A stretch of 9,782 nt of DNA. It comes from a virus (Duplodnaviria > Heunggongvirae > Uroviricota > Caudoviricetes). This document shows positions 4,056 to 9,782 of this stretch, piece after piece; within the stretch, counting starts at the first letter, position 1, and each line of letters starts with the position of its first letter. Where the stretch lies: the IMG/VR virus record IMGVR_UViG_2582580933_000022; one strand, written 5' to 3'. The notes beneath the pieces are model-generated. The model ran no database searches. It saw nothing but the letters and a program-made list of their open reading frames with translations, and was not told the origin of the DNA. Both the position numbers and the translations under genes were made by a program.

Positions 4056-5861
4056 TTAATTTTTTCCATCGTCATTTGTGACCGATGCACATGATGGCAT
4101 CCAGTCTTCTGAATCCTCTGTCAGGGTCACATTTGAACGCAAACCGTGCTTCGTTTTCCGTTTCATATACTCCCTGCCATATTCCGCCATTGCCCCCGGC
4201 ATATCTTTACCGAAGCGCGTCAGTGTTACAGGTTTACCGAATCCGTGTGCCCTCATATATGCCAGATAGGCGTGATAAAGATACCTGCGCGGACTGAACG
4301 GAATAATTTCGGCATTACCCACTAACAGACCATCACACATTACCGACGACATGAGATAGCCGCAGAAGTCCACCAGCGAATCGCCCTCGCGTTTTATCAC
4401 CAGAGCTTCTTCTGATTTCTGCTGCTCATACAGCAGGCGTTTAGCTTCGTCCTGGTCAGAAAAACGAGTAAGCAGGTGGCGAATCACAACCGCCAGCTCT
4501 CCTTCTATTTTTTCTGCCAGCATGGGGTCGCGTTCGTTTTCCGGTACAACCTCCGAAAAATTGAATATCACCCGACGACGTGAGATCCCCCCGCTGCGGT
4601 CACTGAATGACATGGCGTTATTGTTCACCGCCAGCACGACCGCCTGAATGCGTGTTGAGTAGGGGGCTTTATGCTTCGGGTCGATTGCCACCTTGTCACC
4701 GCCTGTAATGGCCTTAATTCCTGCGCCATCACCAGCGTAGCGGGTCATATCCGGCATGATAATCAGCGAAAAGCCAACCACTAACGCGCGTTCCCTGGCA
4801 TCTTCCAGCGCCTTCATGCTTGCCGATACCGTGTTGGCCTTACCCGCCAGCATGGTGCAAATCTCCGCCATTACGCTTTTACCGCTTCCACCCGGCCCCG
4901 TTACCTCAAGAAATAACTGCCAGTCGTACCGGTTCGCCAGCACCATGAATAACGCCGCCAGTACGCGATCCGCTTTACGGTCATTCTCTGCCACCGAACG
5001 GCGCAACCATTTCCAGAAATTCGGCGCATGCGTTGCCAGCGTTTCCCCCTCTGCTGGTGGGCTGAACGGTAATTCACTGGCAATTAACAGCCAGTCGTTT
5101 TTGTCATGCTCCCGAAAATCGCCTGTCCGGGTATCAAAAACACCGTTACTGAATCCAATCAGGTTACGGGCGGTATTCCCCATTACGGGCAAACTTAACT
5201 TCATGGTATCGACCGCCGATTTGATGGCGTTCTGCGAATAACTGATCTCCGCATCAATAAAAATCTGCGCCATAGCCCGCTGTAACTCTTTATCCTGTAC
5301 TGGCTCCCATACAACGCCGTTGTAGTGGTGAACGGTGTCAGAGTCCGCATTAATTGCCAGTTCGCCGCCATAACGTGCCAGGAGAACTTCGCCGCGCTGG
5401 CTTGCTCCCATCTGGTTAAGCGCCAGTGGTGCGGCGCTGTCTTCTGTTTTTTTCTTAACAGGAAGCTGAATAACCAGACCATCAGAAAGATTCTGGCGCT
5501 CACGCTCCAGATATTCGCGCCACTCCTCCCGCTTCTGGCTGTGCATTCCCTCAGGGTAATATCTCGCATCCTGTACACCTGCCGCCGCCAGCTTTTGCCC
5601 GATGGCATTAATATTTGACGGCTTGATGTGGCCTGCCTTGTACAGCCGGACACAATAGCGACCATCGTCGATAATTTTCAGGTCTGCCAGTTCGTCAAGC
5701 TGGCTGTCTCCAAGCCATACAGGTGGCACGTTGTCGCCAGCAAGTCGCCCGTCCTGTTCCTGCCATTGTTTCGCGTGCGCCCAGGCATCGCTACCCGCAA
5801 AAATAATGACTTCGGTCATTTTGTCGTGTGGCTGTTTTTTTAAGTTCGGTGCCAGTTTCAT
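4056..5861 (-). CDS. replication initiator, P4-alpha / PICI Pri-Rep family (D5-like SF3 helicase P-loop domain)
   Basis: 601 aa; Walker A VTGPGGSGKSV, downstream Walker B-like hydrophobic stretch and GGDKVAID...RRRVIFNFSE region typical of phage/plasmid primase C-terminal (P4 family) helicase domains. ATG 5861 with AGGGG SD; ATGA overlap with the upstream ORF stop. Iterons lie immediately downstream. Confidence 0.8.
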   Translation of the reverse strand: MKLAPNLKKQPHDKMTEVIIFAGSDAWAHAKQWQEQDGRLAGDNVPPVWLGDSQLDELADLKIIDDGRYCVRLYKAGHIKPSNINAIGQKLAAAGVQDARYYPEGMHSQKREEWREYLERERQNLSDGLVIQLPVKKKTEDSAAPLALNQMGASQRGEVLLARYGGELAINADSDTVHHYNGVVWEPVQDKELQRAMAQIFIDAEISYSQNAIKSAVDTMKLSLPVMGNTARNLIGFSNGVFDTRTGDFREHDKNDWLLIASELPFSPPAEGETLATHAPNFWKWLRRSVAENDRKADRVLAALFMVLANRYDWQLFLEVTGPGGSGKSVMAEICTMLAGKANTVSASMKALEDARERALVVGFSLIIMPDMTRYAGDGAGIKAITGGDKVAIDPKHKAPYSTRIQAVVLAVNNNAMSFSDRSGGISRRRVIFNFSEVVPENERDPMLAEKIEGELAVVIRHLLTRFSDQDEAKRLLYEQQKSEEALVIKREGDSLVDFCGYLMSSVMCDGLLVGNAEIIPFSPRRYLYHAYLAYMRAHGFGKPVTLTRFGKDMPGAMAEYGREYMKRKTKHGLRSNVTLTEDSEDWMPSCASVTNDDGKN

Positions 5862-6412: not shown

Positions 6413-6641
6413 GGCTCACCACCACCATATCAGCCATGATAATTTTGCTGGCCTCATTCAGCGCCATATCAGCACTAAATTGCATAACAGCCAGTGAGTG
6501 AGGAACGAAAGCCCCGGCATATTCTGTTTCGCTGGTGGCGTGCTTATGCGCCTTGTCTGCGATAACAGAAATATCAATCAGCGCGTCCATCAGCGTTCTG
6601 ATAGCCTCGGCGGCTGCGTCCGGACGGGTGTTATTGCACAT
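6405..6641 (-). CDS. hypothetical protein, 78 aa, early operon
   Basis: ATG 6641 with AGGGGG SD 6 nt upstream; overlaps the stop of the candidate upstream ORF. No family recognised. Confidence 0.5.
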   Translation of the reverse strand: MCNNTRPDAAAEAIRTLMDALIDISVIADKAHKHATSETEYAGAFVPHSLAVMQFSADMALNEASKIIMADMVVVSHE

Positions 6642-6837
6642 GGCGCACCCCCTGACGAATACGGGCGGCGAATACCATCACGCAGCCAGCCGGGGATTGC
6701 TGGCGTGCTTCCTGTTCGCTGGTGGCCTCAATGGTAATCACGCGCGGCTGTGCCGTGCTCAGGGCGATAAAACGCCAGATGTATTTACTTAGGTTGTGCG
6801 AGTCCCGCCCTTGCGGGTGTATGGTATGATTTCTCAT
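6631..6837 (-). CDS. hypothetical protein, 68 aa; candidate first gene of the early operon
   Basis: This is the last 68 codons of the 399-aa ORF in the track. ATG 6837 with GAGG SD 5 nt upstream; stop/start overlap with the next gene (ATGTGCAATAA). The rest of the 399-aa frame is judged spurious. Confidence 0.4.
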   Translation of the reverse strand: MRNHTIHPQGRDSHNLSKYIWRFIALSTAQPRVITIEATSEQEARQQSPAGCVMVFAARIRQGVRHVQ

Positions 6838-6933
6838 AGCTGCCTCGATAATCTTGCTATCGTTGGTGGTTAGAAGCCCTGCGAGTGCTAACGACACTTG
6901 TGGGGCTTTGCTTTTTACTGTACCTACTGATAT

Positions 6934-6977
6934 TGTACGTACGTAACAGCAATGATAATAGGAGTTACGTACGTACA
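6934..6977. promoter_or_regulatory. operator: perfect 14-bp inverted repeat TGTACGTACGTAAC (6934-6947) / GTTACGTACGTACA (6964-6977), 16-bp spacer, overlapping the RBS and ATG of the RHH gene
   Basis: Seen directly; each arm contains the self-complementary core GTACGTAC. Candidate sigma70 elements TTGCTT (6908-6913), 17-bp spacer, TATTGT (6931-6936) sit just upstream on the plus strand. The region is also the divergent intergenic for the minus-strand early operon. Confidence 0.6.
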
Positions 6978-7168
6978 TGTCAACATTAAAGCGCGATAAA
7001 TCGCCACGCGGTGAGGGATGGTCTCCAACCTTCCAAATCAGAATCAGTAAAGAGCTACGCCAACAAGTAAATGAGGCGGCAACTTCTGACGGTCTAACCC
7101 TTGGTAACTGGTTTAAAGAATTAGCTAGGGCAGAACTAAAGCGGCGCGGCATTGAACCAAAAGGATAA
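6977..7168 (+). CDS. ribbon-helix-helix (Arc/MetJ/CopG-type) DNA-binding protein, 63 aa
   Basis: Segment FQIRISKELRQQVNEAATSDGLTLGNWFKELARAEL has the beta-strand / helix / GxT-turn / helix layout of RHH proteins. ATG 6977 lies inside the right operator arm. AT-rich coding sequence. Confidence 0.6.
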   Translation: MSTLKRDKSPRGEGWSPTFQIRISKELRQQVNEAATSDGLTLGNWFKELARAELKRRGIEPKG

Positions 7169-7195
7169 AAGCAATTTCGTTTAAGGTAACACGAT

Positions 7196-7549
7196 ATGAA
7201 ATACGAATTCTTTGCAACCAGTAGTTCAGGAATGGATGTATATATAGTGACCGTATCCAATGACACTGGGCCTTTAATTATGAAATGTAACTGCGCTGCT
7301 GGTGAGAAGGGGATTTTATGCAGGCATAGAAAAGCTCTTATTACTCGAAAAATTAAAGGTGTTTTTACACCGCCAAGGCGTAACGACCCAGAAAAACTAA
7401 AGGAAGCAATGGACTTAATTGCTGTGTATGGGATCGAAAGAAAGTTAGAATTATACACTGCAGAGTTAGAACAGGCGGAGCAAACATGGTTGATCGTTCG
7501 TTCTGCTATAAAATCCAAGATCAACTCTCTTGTTGAACCCAAAGGCTGA
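7196..7549 (+). CDS. small SWIM zinc-finger domain protein, 117 aa, function unknown
   Basis: Motif VYIVTVSNDTGPLIMKCNCAAGEKGILCRHRKAL matches the SWIM signature CxCx(n)CxH with the conserved upstream hydrophobic strand. AAGGT SD 9 nt upstream; 27-nt gap after the RHH gene; AT-rich like its partner. Confidence 0.55.
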   Translation: MKYEFFATSSSGMDVYIVTVSNDTGPLIMKCNCAAGEKGILCRHRKALITRKIKGVFTPPRRNDPEKLKEAMDLIAVYGIERKLELYTAELEQAEQTWLIVRSAIKSKINSLVEPKG

Positions 7550-7655
7550 CAGCCCACCAGCAAGCCAGCACACTGATCACATTGCCAACCAGCCGCAAAT
7601 GTGGCATTGTTGGCTATGCTCATGCGTTGGGGATAACGTGTAGCTTGTGTCGAGG

Positions 7656-7684
7656 GGCCACCGTAGCGGGTGGCCTTTGTTTTG
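7656..7684 (+). terminator. Rho-independent terminator ending the RHH-SWIM operon
   Basis: GGCCACC-gtagcg-GGTGGCC perfect 7-bp GC-rich stem followed by TTTGTTTT; about 105 nt downstream of the SWIM gene stop. Confidence 0.65.
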
Positions 7685-7834
7685 CCTGTTATCCGGCAAT
7701 TGTGGCGCTTCGCCACACGGTTGATATAATTCCCCTGCACTGATCCATTTTTTTCGCAGCAGGTTAATTGTTCGCAAGGGCGCTCCGGCAACGGGGCGCT
7801 TTTTGTTATGTTCATCGCGTTACGCCTCACACCA

Positions 7835-8041
7835 TTACGCAGCCGTTCCGCGCGCTTCTTCCTCGCGCTCTTTCAGCCAGGCCAGCACTTCATCTTCATA
7901 CCAGCCAACACGACGCAGACCGATTTTGAAGCCTTTCGGGAATTTTCCGGCGTTGATCATGTCCTGTAGCGAACTGTCTGCCTTGATGCGCAGAATATTT
8001 TTTACTTCCTGACGGGTAAGTATTTTTCTGATTGTTTCCAC
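7835..8041 (-). CDS. alpA: AlpA-family prophage transcriptional regulator / excisionase-like HTH protein, 68 aa
   Basis: ILTRQEVKNILRIKADSSLQDMINAGKFPKGFKIGLRRVGWYEDEVLAWL matches the AlpA pattern (compare E. coli AlpA ...ILRLPAVIQKTGMARATIYDWLNPKSPRYDATFPKKRQLGVKSVGWIEAEIDEWL). GTG start at 8041 with GAGGT SD 8 nt upstream; canonical position next to int. Confidence 0.8.
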   Translation of the reverse strand: METIRKILTRQEVKNILRIKADSSLQDMINAGKFPKGFKIGLRRVGWYEDEVLAWLKEREEEARGTAA

Positions 8042-8106
8042 TATGTTTTACCTCGTTAATCCGGCGTATTCCGGTGATAAATACGGTAAAACAGGGCAGG
8101 GCGGGA

Positions 8107-8146
8107 AAAACAGTACCCACCGTTTTAAAACGGTACCCACTGTTTT
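8107..8146. promoter_or_regulatory. two tandem 20-bp repeats AAAACAGTACCCACCGTTTT / AAAACGGTACCCACTGTTTT with strong internal dyad symmetry, 66-105 bp upstream of alpA
   Basis: Seen directly: 18/20 identity between the repeats; the junction forms the perfect 16-bp palindrome ACCGTTTTAAAACGGT, and the outer ends AAAACAGT/ACTGTTTT are also complementary. Candidate regulator-binding site controlling alpA. Confidence 0.5.
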
Positions 8147-8176
8147 TTATCTCATTGATTACGCTTTTCTTTCTGC

Positions 8177-8206
8177 AAAAAAATAGCGACCGCAAAGGGC
8201 CGCTAT
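8177..8206 (-). terminator. Rho-independent terminator downstream of the int-proximal small ORF
   Basis: On the minus strand: stem ATAGCGGCC / loop CTTTGC / GGTCGCTAT (one mismatch) followed by a run of 6-7 T; begins 6 nt after the stop at 8212. Confidence 0.6.
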
Positions 8207-8211
8207 TGTGA

Positions 8212-8442
8212 TTACCGTTTCCACTTCTTAGGTCGCCCACCGCATTTAAGGCTGGTGGGCCTCAGCACCTTGTCGATGCTTTCAGCCAGATTTTTCGATG
8301 CGCCACGCGAGCGTAAAAAACTGACTACCTCGTGTTTTGTGGGGGCTGTTGATTTGTCTTCCGGATCGTATGTTGACCAGAATTCACGATTTGCCATTAA
8401 CGCCAGTTGCAGCCCTTCGCCGTAGGCGGTGGTATTTTGCAT
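8212..8442 (-). CDS. hypothetical protein, 76 aa, basic C-terminal tail (GGRPKKWKR)
   Basis: ATG 8442 but the only SD-like GGAG is 19 nt upstream. A perfect TATAAT (minus strand, plus coordinates 8493-8488) lies upstream and a terminator follows. Coding status uncertain. Confidence 0.35.
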   Translation of the reverse strand: MQNTTAYGEGLQLALMANREFWSTYDPEDKSTAPTKHEVVSFLRSRGASKNLAESIDKVLRPTSLKCGGRPKKWKR

Positions 8443-8540
8443 AATAGAATTTTCATATACTCCGGCCTTGTCGTTAAATTTGTGGCAATTATACGATGGT
8501 TTGGCATGGTTTGCATCGCTTTTACTGGCTTTTTGTACAG

Positions 8541-9782
8541 TTACACGGCACGGATACCCCTTTTACCACTGGCTATGGTCACTCCGGTAGCTGCGGCCTC
8601 TACAAATTCCCCCCACCAGCGCATAAGCACCACGCGCTTTTCCAGGTAGTTACTTCGGTTATATGCTCGCCTTACCTCGTTCGTGTCCACGTGTGCGAGC
8701 GCGGCCTCGATTACGTCCGGCTCGAATCCTTCCTCGTTCGCTGCTGTGCTGAATATGGCGCGTAATCCGTGAGACACCAGCACACCAGCGTAACCCATCC
8801 GGCGCAATGCGGCGTTAGCGGTCTGGCTGCTCATTGGCAGCATCGGGTTTTTAAGGCTGGGAAAAACGTGTTCCCTATGTGCGCTGATTGGCTTCATGGT
8901 TTCCAGTACAGCCATAGCCTGACCGCAAAGGGGGATCACATGGTCACGGCGCATCTTCATGCGTCCGGCTGGAATCGTCCAGGTTTCGGCATCGAGATCT
9001 ATTTCTTCCCAGCGTGCGGCGGCTGCTTCGGCTGGGCGTGCTACGGTCAGCAGTTGCCACTCAATCAGCAATCTGGTTTGCCGTTCTATGCTGGCGACCG
9101 ATAAATCGTGCATTAGCTGCGGTAGCTGTTCCGGTCGGATGGTTGGCATGTGCTTTTTGGTGGGTGAGGGGAATGCCTTGCGGACGTTCGCGGCGGTGTT
9201 GATGTCAATCAGCCCACTGTTGGCAGCAAAATCCATCACTTCATTGATGCGTTGTAAAACGCGTTTCAGGGTTTCCAGGTTGCCGCGTGCTTTAATGGGT
9301 GTGAGTATCTCAACAAAGCGGCGAGCTGTGAGGGTATCTATTGGCGTGTTTCCGATGTACGGGAATACGTATTTTTCCAGGGATCGCCAGATATCCTTAA
9401 TCGTGTTGTAAGCCAGATTCTGGCCTTTTTTCATCTCGTACCAGTCCGAGGCAACTTTTTCGAACGTGTTGCCCTTTTTCCGACTCTCTGCTTCACGTTT
9501 CCGGCGTTCGTGGTCCTGTGGGTCAACTCCCTTCGCTATGAGTGACCTGTATTCATTCCGTCGTTCTCTGGCATCGGACAGGGAAACATCATTCAGCGAT
9601 CCGAGGCTGATGATAGTCCGTTTTTTATCTGCCGGGCGGTAGTACGTAAAACGCCAGATTTTTGATCCGGAGGGTTTCACCAGAAGAAATAATCCTCCAC
9701 CATCCTGCAGGGTGTATTCCTTTTCCCCAGGTCGTGCGTTTTTGATCTCCGTAATGGTTAGTGGGGTGGTTTTTCGTGCCAT
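8541..9782 (-). CDS. int: site-specific tyrosine recombinase, P4-type integrase
   Basis: 413 aa; N-terminal arm-type domain (TLQDGGGLFLLVKPSGSKIWRFTYY...ISLGS...SLSDARERR) and C-terminal catalytic region (HGLRAIFST...ALAHVDTNEVRRAYNRSNYLEKR) typical of P4 / CP4-57 IntA-like integrases. The ATG is bases 9782-9780, the last three bases of the window, so attachment site and any target tRNA are outside it. Confidence 0.9.
   Translation of the reverse strand: MARKTTPLTITEIKNARPGEKEYTLQDGGGLFLLVKPSGSKIWRFTYYRPADKKRTIISLGSLNDVSLSDARERRNEYRSLIAKGVDPQDHERRKREAESRKKGNTFEKVASDWYEMKKGQNLAYNTIKDIWRSLEKYVFPYIGNTPIDTLTARRFVEILTPIKARGNLETLKRVLQRINEVMDFAANSGLIDINTAANVRKAFPSPTKKHMPTIRPEQLPQLMHDLSVASIERQTRLLIEWQLLTVARPAEAAAARWEEIDLDAETWTIPAGRMKMRRDHVIPLCGQAMAVLETMKPISAHREHVFPSLKNPMLPMSSQTANAALRRMGYAGVLVSHGLRAIFSTAANEEGFEPDVIEAALAHVDTNEVRRAYNRSNYLEKRVVLMRWWGEFVEAAATGVTIASGKRGIRAV

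Follow-up and report, generated by a model that had tools for sequence, protein, structure and literature searches.

A putative two-dyad operator upstream of alpA in one E. coli PICI lineage, with the product of orf76 as its candidate binding protein

Gram-negative PICIs have been described as islands for which no repressor is known and which AlpA switches on (PMC6092414); AlpA activates the alpA promoter, PalpA, in EcCICFT073 and in EcCIMP1 (PMC6092414; PMC11773190). The helper phages lambda, phi80 and Kapi1 raise alpA transcription independently of SOS, and the phage inducer was stated to be under study (PMC6092414). With an alpA reporter of EcCIMP1, the helper-dependent induction survived the deletion of alpA, with a lower maximum (PMC11773190). 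Since a helper-dependent input that does not need AlpA exists besides the input of AlpA itself, PalpA has at least two inputs (PMC6092414; PMC11773190), and from the AlpA-independent helper input a site for something other than AlpA is expected there. In the literature that we searched, no paper defined the cis-elements of PalpA or the phage inducer.

The window analyzed here, a stretch of 9,782 nucleotides, is an E. coli PICI-type phage satellite inserted beside tRNA-Pro/yejM, with its core genes all on the minus strand. A 40-bp repeated element lies in it between the terminator of the int-orf76 unit, 35 bp upstream of the element, and the leader of alpA. We regard it as likely that this element is a protein operator controlling alpA. 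More specifically, we propose, with a probability of roughly 45%, that it would be a cis-regulatory operator of PalpA formed by two dyads 20 bp apart and bound by the product of orf76, in one E. coli PICI lineage.

Setting, sequence and conservation of the element

The coordinates of the features are collected in Table 1. The second AlpA-family gene lies directly upstream of the TerS-like gene, an arrangement that recalls the second alpA copy of EcCIMP1. A 399-aa minus-strand ORF (6631-7830) is probably no gene, and in homologous loci the annotation at this place is of Icd-like or ash-like pseudogene fragments. Two plus-strand genes converge on alpA, an RHH-like ylcI/ynfO gene (6977-7168) and a SWIM zinc finger gene (7196-7549); the hairpin at 7776-7803 that ends them has its T-run on the plus strand only and therefore should not stop alpA transcripts. 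In front of the first of these genes, a perfect 14-bp inverted repeat (TGTACGTACGTAAC ... GTTACGTACGTACA, 6936-6975) brackets the Shine-Dalgarno and the ATG. Apart from the element, it is the sole 40-mer of the window with a self-complementarity of at least 16/20, and it is probably an autoregulatory operator or a hairpin occluding the ribosome-binding site.

Table 1. Features of the satellite and of the alpA control region, in minus-strand order
Feature	Position	Strand	Remarks
P4-type tyrosine integrase	8541-9782	minus	First gene of the co-inherited int-orf76-operator-alpA block
orf76, 76 aa	8212-8442	minus	Candidate cognate DNA-binding protein
Intrinsic terminator, 10-bp stem then T-run	8182-8207	minus	Closes the int-orf76 transcription unit
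alpA-distal unit	8127-8146	minus	In alpA direction: AAAACAGT-GGGT-ACCGTTTT
alpA-proximal unit	8107-8126	minus	In alpA direction: AAAACGGT-GGGT-ACTGTTTT
8-bp arms of the element	8107-8114, 8119-8126, 8127-8134, 8139-8146
4-bp spacers of the element	8115-8118, 8135-8138		ACCC in both units
Invariant block TTTACCGTATTT	8079-8090	minus	Likely PalpA -10 region (putative placement); invariant in 36 sequences
Leader inverted repeat, 9-bp stem	8085-8093 / 8044-8052	minus	Would pair part of the alpA Shine-Dalgarno (GAGG, 8051-8054)
10-bp tandem direct repeat CACCGGAATA / CGCCGGATTA	8057-8076	minus	Candidate AlpA (RDF-type) autoregulatory site
alpA, 68 aa, GTG start	7835-8041	minus	Pfam PF05930 Phage_AlpA, 4.5e-08; PHROG excisionase/transcriptional regulator
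Icd/ash-like zone			After alpA in minus-strand gene order
DUF4222 gene and D5-type primase	primase 4056-5861	minus
SSB gene; major capsid and decoration genes		minus	After the primase in gene order
Second AlpA-family gene, 127 aa	1100-1483	minus	PHROG 2790, Pfam Phage_AlpA
TerS-like gene	356-910	minus

The element is made of two abutting 20-bp units, AAAACAGTACCCACCGTTTT (8107-8126) and AAAACGGTACCCACTGTTTT (8127-8146), which are identical at 18 of 20 positions the two differing positions being 6 and 15 of the unit. In each unit, 8-bp inverted arms (AAAACNGT / ACNGTTTT) flank a 4-bp spacer. A perfect palindrome of 16 bp, ACCGTTTTAAAACGGT, spans the junction, and the arms at the two ends (AAAACAGT...ACTGTTTT) are mutually complementary. 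Of the 20 pairs that the 40-mer can form with itself, 16 are complementary, and the four mismatched ones all fall in the spacers. A4/T4 tracts end each unit, with T4A4 at the junction. A repeat search returned the element both as a direct repeat at 90% and as an overlapping palindrome (arms 8106-8127 and 8126-8147, 82% complementary). The reading of the sequence and this search confirmed the original prediction of two 20-bp repeats with two differing positions and found the nested palindromes that it had placed at the junction and at the ends; because alpA starts with the GTG at 8041 on the minus strand, its distance of 66-105 bp upstream of alpA was also correct. When windows were simulated with a first-order Markov model, a 20-bp tandem repeat with at least 18/20 identities was not obtained in 1000 windows (best 17), and any 40-mer with a self-complementarity of at least 16/20 was obtained in 1 of 200. 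Within the window, the pattern AAAACNGTNNNNACNGTTTT had no second match with 3 mismatches allowed.

We then drew on E. coli genomes and IMG/VR contigs for 59 copies of the spacer between orf76 and alpA, which reduced to 36 distinct sequences forming two main haplotype groups. Between these groups, synonymous divergence reaches about 1.0 in alpA and more than 2 in orf76, and the stretch from the terminator to the element, as well as the 16 bp downstream of the element, is largely different. At the place of the terminator, the second group carries a hairpin and T-run of different sequence. Across the 36 distinct sequences, all 16 arm positions of the proximal unit (8107-8126) were invariant. The spacer of this unit, read in alpA direction, was GGGT, GAGT, GGGA or TGGT, i.e., G-R-G-W except for the single TGGT. 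The distal unit (8127-8146) was degenerate among the relatives (AAAACGAT.., AAAACGTT.., AAAACTGT.., ..ACAGTTTA), with the spacer variants GGGT, GAGT, GGAT, GTAT, TATA and TCTA, and it was deleted as an exact 20-bp unit in two sequence backgrounds (L006; L106/L131). Between the proximal unit and the invariant block at 8079-8090, no indel altered the spacing in the 36 sequences. One relative, L071, carries a 10-bp duplication downstream of the element. The 20-bp deletion and this 10-bp duplication therefore exclude a coding constraint on the element, including one from the overlapping small ORFs (8043-8186 on the plus strand; 7896-8240 on the minus strand). Taken together, the inverted arms are conserved and the centre is variable, beyond neutral expectation, as in a dyad operator.

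Pairing was counted in the 12 distinct two-unit variants with two schemes, within the units and across the junction. No pair was altered on both sides in either scheme, and three pairs of the distal unit were broken in 7, 7 and 2 of the 12 variants. Together with the conserved arms, this shows that the element is under purifying selection as a duplex sequence and not as a hairpin. Arms that are near invariant, spacers that are free and the lack of compensatory change fit a protein operator rather than a hairpin, and the pattern is the one expected for a symmetric protein with a strong proximal site and a weaker auxiliary site two helical turns away. The original prediction that the geometry suits a dimeric activator or repressor was thus strengthened as far as a site for a symmetric regulator is concerned, by these three traits and by the position between terminator and leader; the choice between activator and repressor is taken up below.

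A near-identical alpA region is present in about 100 of 5,426 complete E. coli genomes, and a recognizable orf76-alpA spacer in about 370 of them. When the loci L041-L091 were compared with the window, the int-orf76-element-alpA block was co-inherited (int 82-100%, orf76 65-100% and AlpA 66-100% identity) and the primase/replication module was exchanged between islands (36-99% identity). On these identities, the comparison shows modular mosaicism inside one attachment-site family. In IMG/VR pattern scans, the double site was confined to PICI-sized contigs of the lineage of the window.

The alpA promoter region and the candidate sites of AlpA

A consensus scan of 7700-8700 gave no sigma-70 promoter, and a manual reading gave no convincing -35/-10 pair, so that we rejected a canonical promoter within the dyads or ahead of them. 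The invariant block downstream of the element, the likely -10 region, resembles one degenerate arm (ACCGTATT). Two -10 candidates were considered, both weak and without a -35. With TATTTA (8078-8083), transcription would start near 8071 and the dyad centres would stand at -45.5 and -65.5; with TACCGT (8083-8088), the start would be near 8075/8076 and the centres at about -41 and -61. At the corresponding place, related lineages have CCYACC joined to TATATT or TATTTT (CCYACC-TATATT in L220-L223), which by analogy would favour TATTTA as the -10. This putative layout fits an activator-dependent promoter, or one for which the A/T tracts of the element form an UP-like region that a protein can cover. 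Further downstream, the stem of the leader inverted repeat shows one compensatory change, U-A to A-U, between the haplotype groups, and Shine-Dalgarno-covering repeats of other sequence are also present in L220, L222, L223 and L215. The leader repeat may act only in transcripts starting upstream of 8093 and in this way insulate the translation of alpA from int-orf76 read-through.

The 10-bp direct repeat at 8057-8076 separates the putative -10 from the ribosome-binding site and is present in three copies in L071. Recombination directionality factors typically bind direct repeats one helical turn apart (PMC7498355). For a comparison on the side of AlpA, a profile-guided scan with one genome per species yielded 15 loci from other genera and species (Pantoea, Citrobacter, Edwardsiella, Pectobacterium, Brenneria, Erwinia and other Escherichia). 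Overall, the AlpA proteins of these loci are 62-72% identical, and the helix and wing are nearly identical (EVK.ILR..SDS.FQ.MINAGEFP.GFRIGLRRVGW). None of the 15 loci has the 40-bp element beside this near-identical helix and wing, and each has upstream repeats or palindromes of its own. A YCGG direct repeat with a 10-bp period, at a fixed distance from the start codon, is present in 11 of the 15 and in both haplotype groups of the window family. With the pattern YCG[GA]-N6-YCG[GA] at -46 to -33 from the start codon, 13 of 17 alpA loci match, compared to 1.1% of random 50-nt windows.

The element itself differs from AlpA/Xis-type sites, being inverted, with a 20-bp period and no co-variation with the AlpA allele; a related motif core was found alongside a different allele. 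Since the element is absent beside the same AlpA residues, and since repeats like those of recombination directionality factors occur at 8057-8076, we infer that the CCGG repeats, and not the element, belong to AlpA. The binder of the element is therefore probably not AlpA, as judged from these alignments. The island EcCICFT073 (L093, E. coli CFT073) has a different AlpA allele and an int-alpA spacer without ORF or dyads; it carries about six ACAAC repeats with an exact 10-bp period at 9188-9245, and GACACAA repeats over the likely alpA -35 region at 9449-9480.

The orf76 family and the competing explanations

With a dN/dS of 0.05-0.13, orf76 is a real gene under strong purifying selection. 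Neither orf76 nor its full-length relatives belong to a Pfam, PHROGs or NCBIfam family. The AF2 model of orf76 (pLDDT 79.5) is a bundle of three helices followed by a disordered basic tail, and a Foldseek search of this model against the PDB gave nothing significant. Both the third helix and the tail, GGRPKKW, are invariant in the orf76 family. A profile search with the orf76 domain among 1.84 billion representatives gave 623 clusters, matched by no Pfam or NCBIfam model. In these, the domain of about 60 aa forms the extreme C-terminus of uncharacterized proteins of 170-400 aa; orf76 is a stand-alone copy of this domain. The domain consensus is GLE..AI.QFWSTYDP.D..TAPTK.EVI.YL..RG.SKNMAEAVD.ILRP..L..GRPKK, and many full-length members share the N-terminal motif W(K/R).VQEF(T/S)I.QAALLLAGIDP.

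Distant loci of the family were recovered from IMG/VR (13 loci, ten of them analyzed), with a domain identity of 37-58%. In the sampled loci (L214-L227, L012), the order is int - X - alpA, X being the orf76-family gene, located 160-255 bp upstream of an AlpA-like gene. Four of five tested downstream genes match Pfam Phage_AlpA (L227 has no match), six loci (L215-L223) carry an AlpA allele unlike that of the window, and wherever this was checked a tyrosine integrase precedes the orf76-family gene. The X-alpA spacers contain inverted repeats of an A/T-rich 5' flank plus GGTRGG, a motif that the left arm and spacer of the proximal unit (aaaacGGTGGGtac, 8113-8126) also fit. The hexamer GGTRGG, which was picked after inspection, occurs 14 times in 2,014 nt of X-alpA spacers compared to 1.5 expected (about 9-fold, P ~1e-9), in a count that takes in the proximal unit of the window (ttaaaacGGTGGGtact), L214 (attaaacGGTGGGggga) and L221 (tagaaacGGTAGGcccc) and in which several loci are interrelated. 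In 16 loci that have no clear X gene, its density in front of alpA is at background (0.85 per kb), and 15 of these 16 have an AlpA closely related to that of the window. In L220, two sites of A/T flank plus GGTRGG overlap the -35 and the -10 of the sole predicted promoter. The locus L021 has the same integrase family and lacks both orf76 and the dyads. The enrichment beside X genes, the background level elsewhere and L021 indicate that the motif follows the orf76 domain, and neither AlpA nor the integrase.

These associations make orf76 our candidate for the binder of the element, at somewhat less than even odds. Its very conserved helix, read here as a recognition helix, could equally serve a protein-protein contact. 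The YlcI/YnfO RHH-like protein (6977-7168) was also considered as a binder and rejected, being absent from the element-bearing L003 and present in identical form in the element-free EcCICFT073.

Among the explanations that compete with binding by orf76, the main one is a direct activator from the helper: a dimeric helper-encoded protein would bind both dyads and recruit RNA polymerase to an otherwise dead promoter. PalpA has neither a -35 nor a consensus promoter, the dyad centres stand near classical activator positions, and the induction of alpA by helpers is independent of AlpA and of SOS, all of which agree with such an activator. There is also a precedent, the action of P2 Cox and Ogr on the PLL promoter of P4. 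However, an activator of this kind is expected to have sites in its own genome, and none was found in searches limited to exact arms or long blastn matches. The original prediction had proposed to look for the same motif upstream of helper late genes, and no such copy turned up: a blastn search with the element in 50,697 phage records, where long matches were required, gave chance matches only, and lambda has three matches with 3 mismatches compared to 2.7 expected. In IMG/VR scans with exact arms, no E. coli-like phage contig carried the site, single-site patterns being scattered over metagenomic contigs at about the chance rate. The missing phage-borne copies weaken the case for a helper activator with operators of its own, and the motif core tracks a satellite gene. 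On balance, direct activation by a helper protein appears unlikely to us. Lower still we place AlpA itself binding the dyads and activating its own promoter, an improbable reading even though AlpA activates PalpA in EcCICFT073 and EcCIMP1 and alpA and the element are inherited together. Upstream of homologues that hardly differ from it in the helix and wing, the element is missing, the excisionase-type direct repeats occur separately at 8057-8076, and the GGTRGG-type motif is common to lineages with different AlpA alleles.

A host factor would dispense with any satellite-specific protein, the A/T tracts serving as an UP element or being recognized by a nucleoid protein or a regulator of the host. 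Under one of the two promoter placements, in-phase A/T tracts would indeed fall in the -40 to -60 region. A/T content alone, however, does not explain the invariant C.GT / AC.G positions of the arms, the pattern was found solely in this satellite lineage among the scanned collections, and by eye no match to a LexA, CRP, IHF, PhoP or PurR-type consensus was seen; we consider a host factor about as improbable as AlpA. Least probable of all, and in our opinion very much so, is that the element works as a hairpin or cruciform of the DNA or the transcript, i.e., as a terminator, a processing site or an attenuator. The 40 nt can fold as a long hairpin if transcribed, and the consensus scan gave a weak terminator-like match at 8135-8118. 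Against this, the stems are mismatched and A-U rich, which is not the G+C-rich stem of a terminator, compensatory change is zero, the distal pairing is broken, the loss of a single unit is tolerated and a strong terminator already stands 35 bp upstream. An Rfam scan of the window gave no family that reached its gathering score.

Proposed mechanism and comparison with known systems

Returning to orf76 as the binder, we propose the following mechanism. Dimers of orf76 would fill the proximal dyad, which would be essential, and then cooperatively the distal dyad, which would be auxiliary and dispensable. The HTH-like helices of orf76 would read the CNGT(GGG) of each arm, and its GGRPKK tail would enter the minor groove of the flanking A-tracts. 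AT-hooks and Hin-type arms read the minor groove of A-tracts in this way. With dyad centres at about -41/-61 or -46/-66, the bound protein would cover the -35/UP-element region of a promoter without a -35. Because orf76 belongs to the transcription unit of int, and this unit is presumably expressed while the island rests, orf76 would most likely keep PalpA shut, the terminator insulating orf76 from alpA. The leader repeat (8085-8093 / 8044-8052) may silence the int-orf76 read-through. A helper-dependent event would then remove or override this repression, and a small initial amount of AlpA would amplify its own synthesis via the CCGG repeats near the ribosome-binding site. We infer which protein binds, whether it represses or activates, where the promoter lies and how the helper is linked to it, and the full scheme of a repressor relieved by the helper is tentative, with the balance of probability against it.

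A wider and similarly speculative extension is that many lineages of Gram-negative PICIs and related int-alpA islands may encode a master repressor family that has gone unrecognized, the orf76 domain, located between int and alpA and binding A/T-flanked GGTRGG. The variable N-terminal domains would then sense particular helpers, and a minimal version without sensor would have the 40-bp element as its operator.

The element is lineage-specific, real and under selection, and as a type of feature it would be an ordinary promoter operator. It appears to be undescribed, the literature search for its sequence having returned solely unrelated DNA-physics oligonucleotides. For the helper switch-on of Gram-negative PICIs, it offers a defined 20-40 bp target for the missing input, and the orf76 domain family, an unstudied protein family, is a concrete candidate partner. 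If the reading with orf76 is true, it could help to explain how the satellite is switched on; even as a common autoregulatory site or a site of the host, the element would mark where alpA, the master switch of the satellite, is controlled.

Several known types of site were considered and set aside. Replication iterons do not suit two copies only, one of which is enough in L006, L106 and L131, nor a distance of 2.2 kb from the primase gene; the ori of PICIs was reported downstream of pri (PMC10111431). The LexA (SOS) box CTGT-N8-ACAG is absent from both strands of the element, and alpA induction was reported to be SOS-independent (PMC6092414). The AlpA antiterminator of P. aeruginosa is a larger, Q-like protein of unrelated fold that binds an element between -35 and -10, and it was not retained as a model. 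Integrase arm sites were rejected as well, since more than 1.6 kb of the island separate the element from the att end near int.

Compared to the sites of recombination directionality factors (Xis, Apl, Cox, Vis, AlpA), the likeness lies in the direct repeats of 10-bp period at 8057-8076 beside the element, whereas the 40-bp element is built of inverted arms with a period of 20 bp and shows no co-variation with AlpA. The PLL promoter of P4, upstream of vis and under the control of P2 Ogr/P4 Delta, P2 Cox and Vis, is similar in that a promoter with helper and satellite inputs precedes an AlpA-family gene. However, Cox boxes are absent from the alpA upstream region of the window, and since ACAGT precedes ACTGT on both strands, there is no TGT-N12-ACA (Ogr/Delta element) in 8041-8211. 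In P4, moreover, int is not upstream of vis and no orf76-like gene is present in the genome. With Stl (Rpr) of SaPIs, the proposed logic is shared, that of a lineage-specific satellite regulator beside int that would silence the island until a helper protein acts; orf76 has no sequence relation to Stl and is not divergently transcribed, and its role as a repressor is putative. The last comparison is with the tandem dyad operators of temperate phages, for instance OR1-OR2 of lambda, to which repressor dimers bind cooperatively. Here, units of 20 bp directly follow one another, each with arms of 8 bp, a spacer of 4 bp and A-tracts at its ends, no core promoter is recognizable that they would overlap, and the candidate binder orf76 is not of the Cro/CI type (no Pfam match) and is co-directional with alpA, with a terminator in between. 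In spite of these differences, the element resembles OR1-OR2 in its adjacent dyads with conserved arms and free centres, in the combination of a strong and a weaker site, and in its presumed place at a switch promoter adjoining the gene of a small, here putative, DNA-binding protein.
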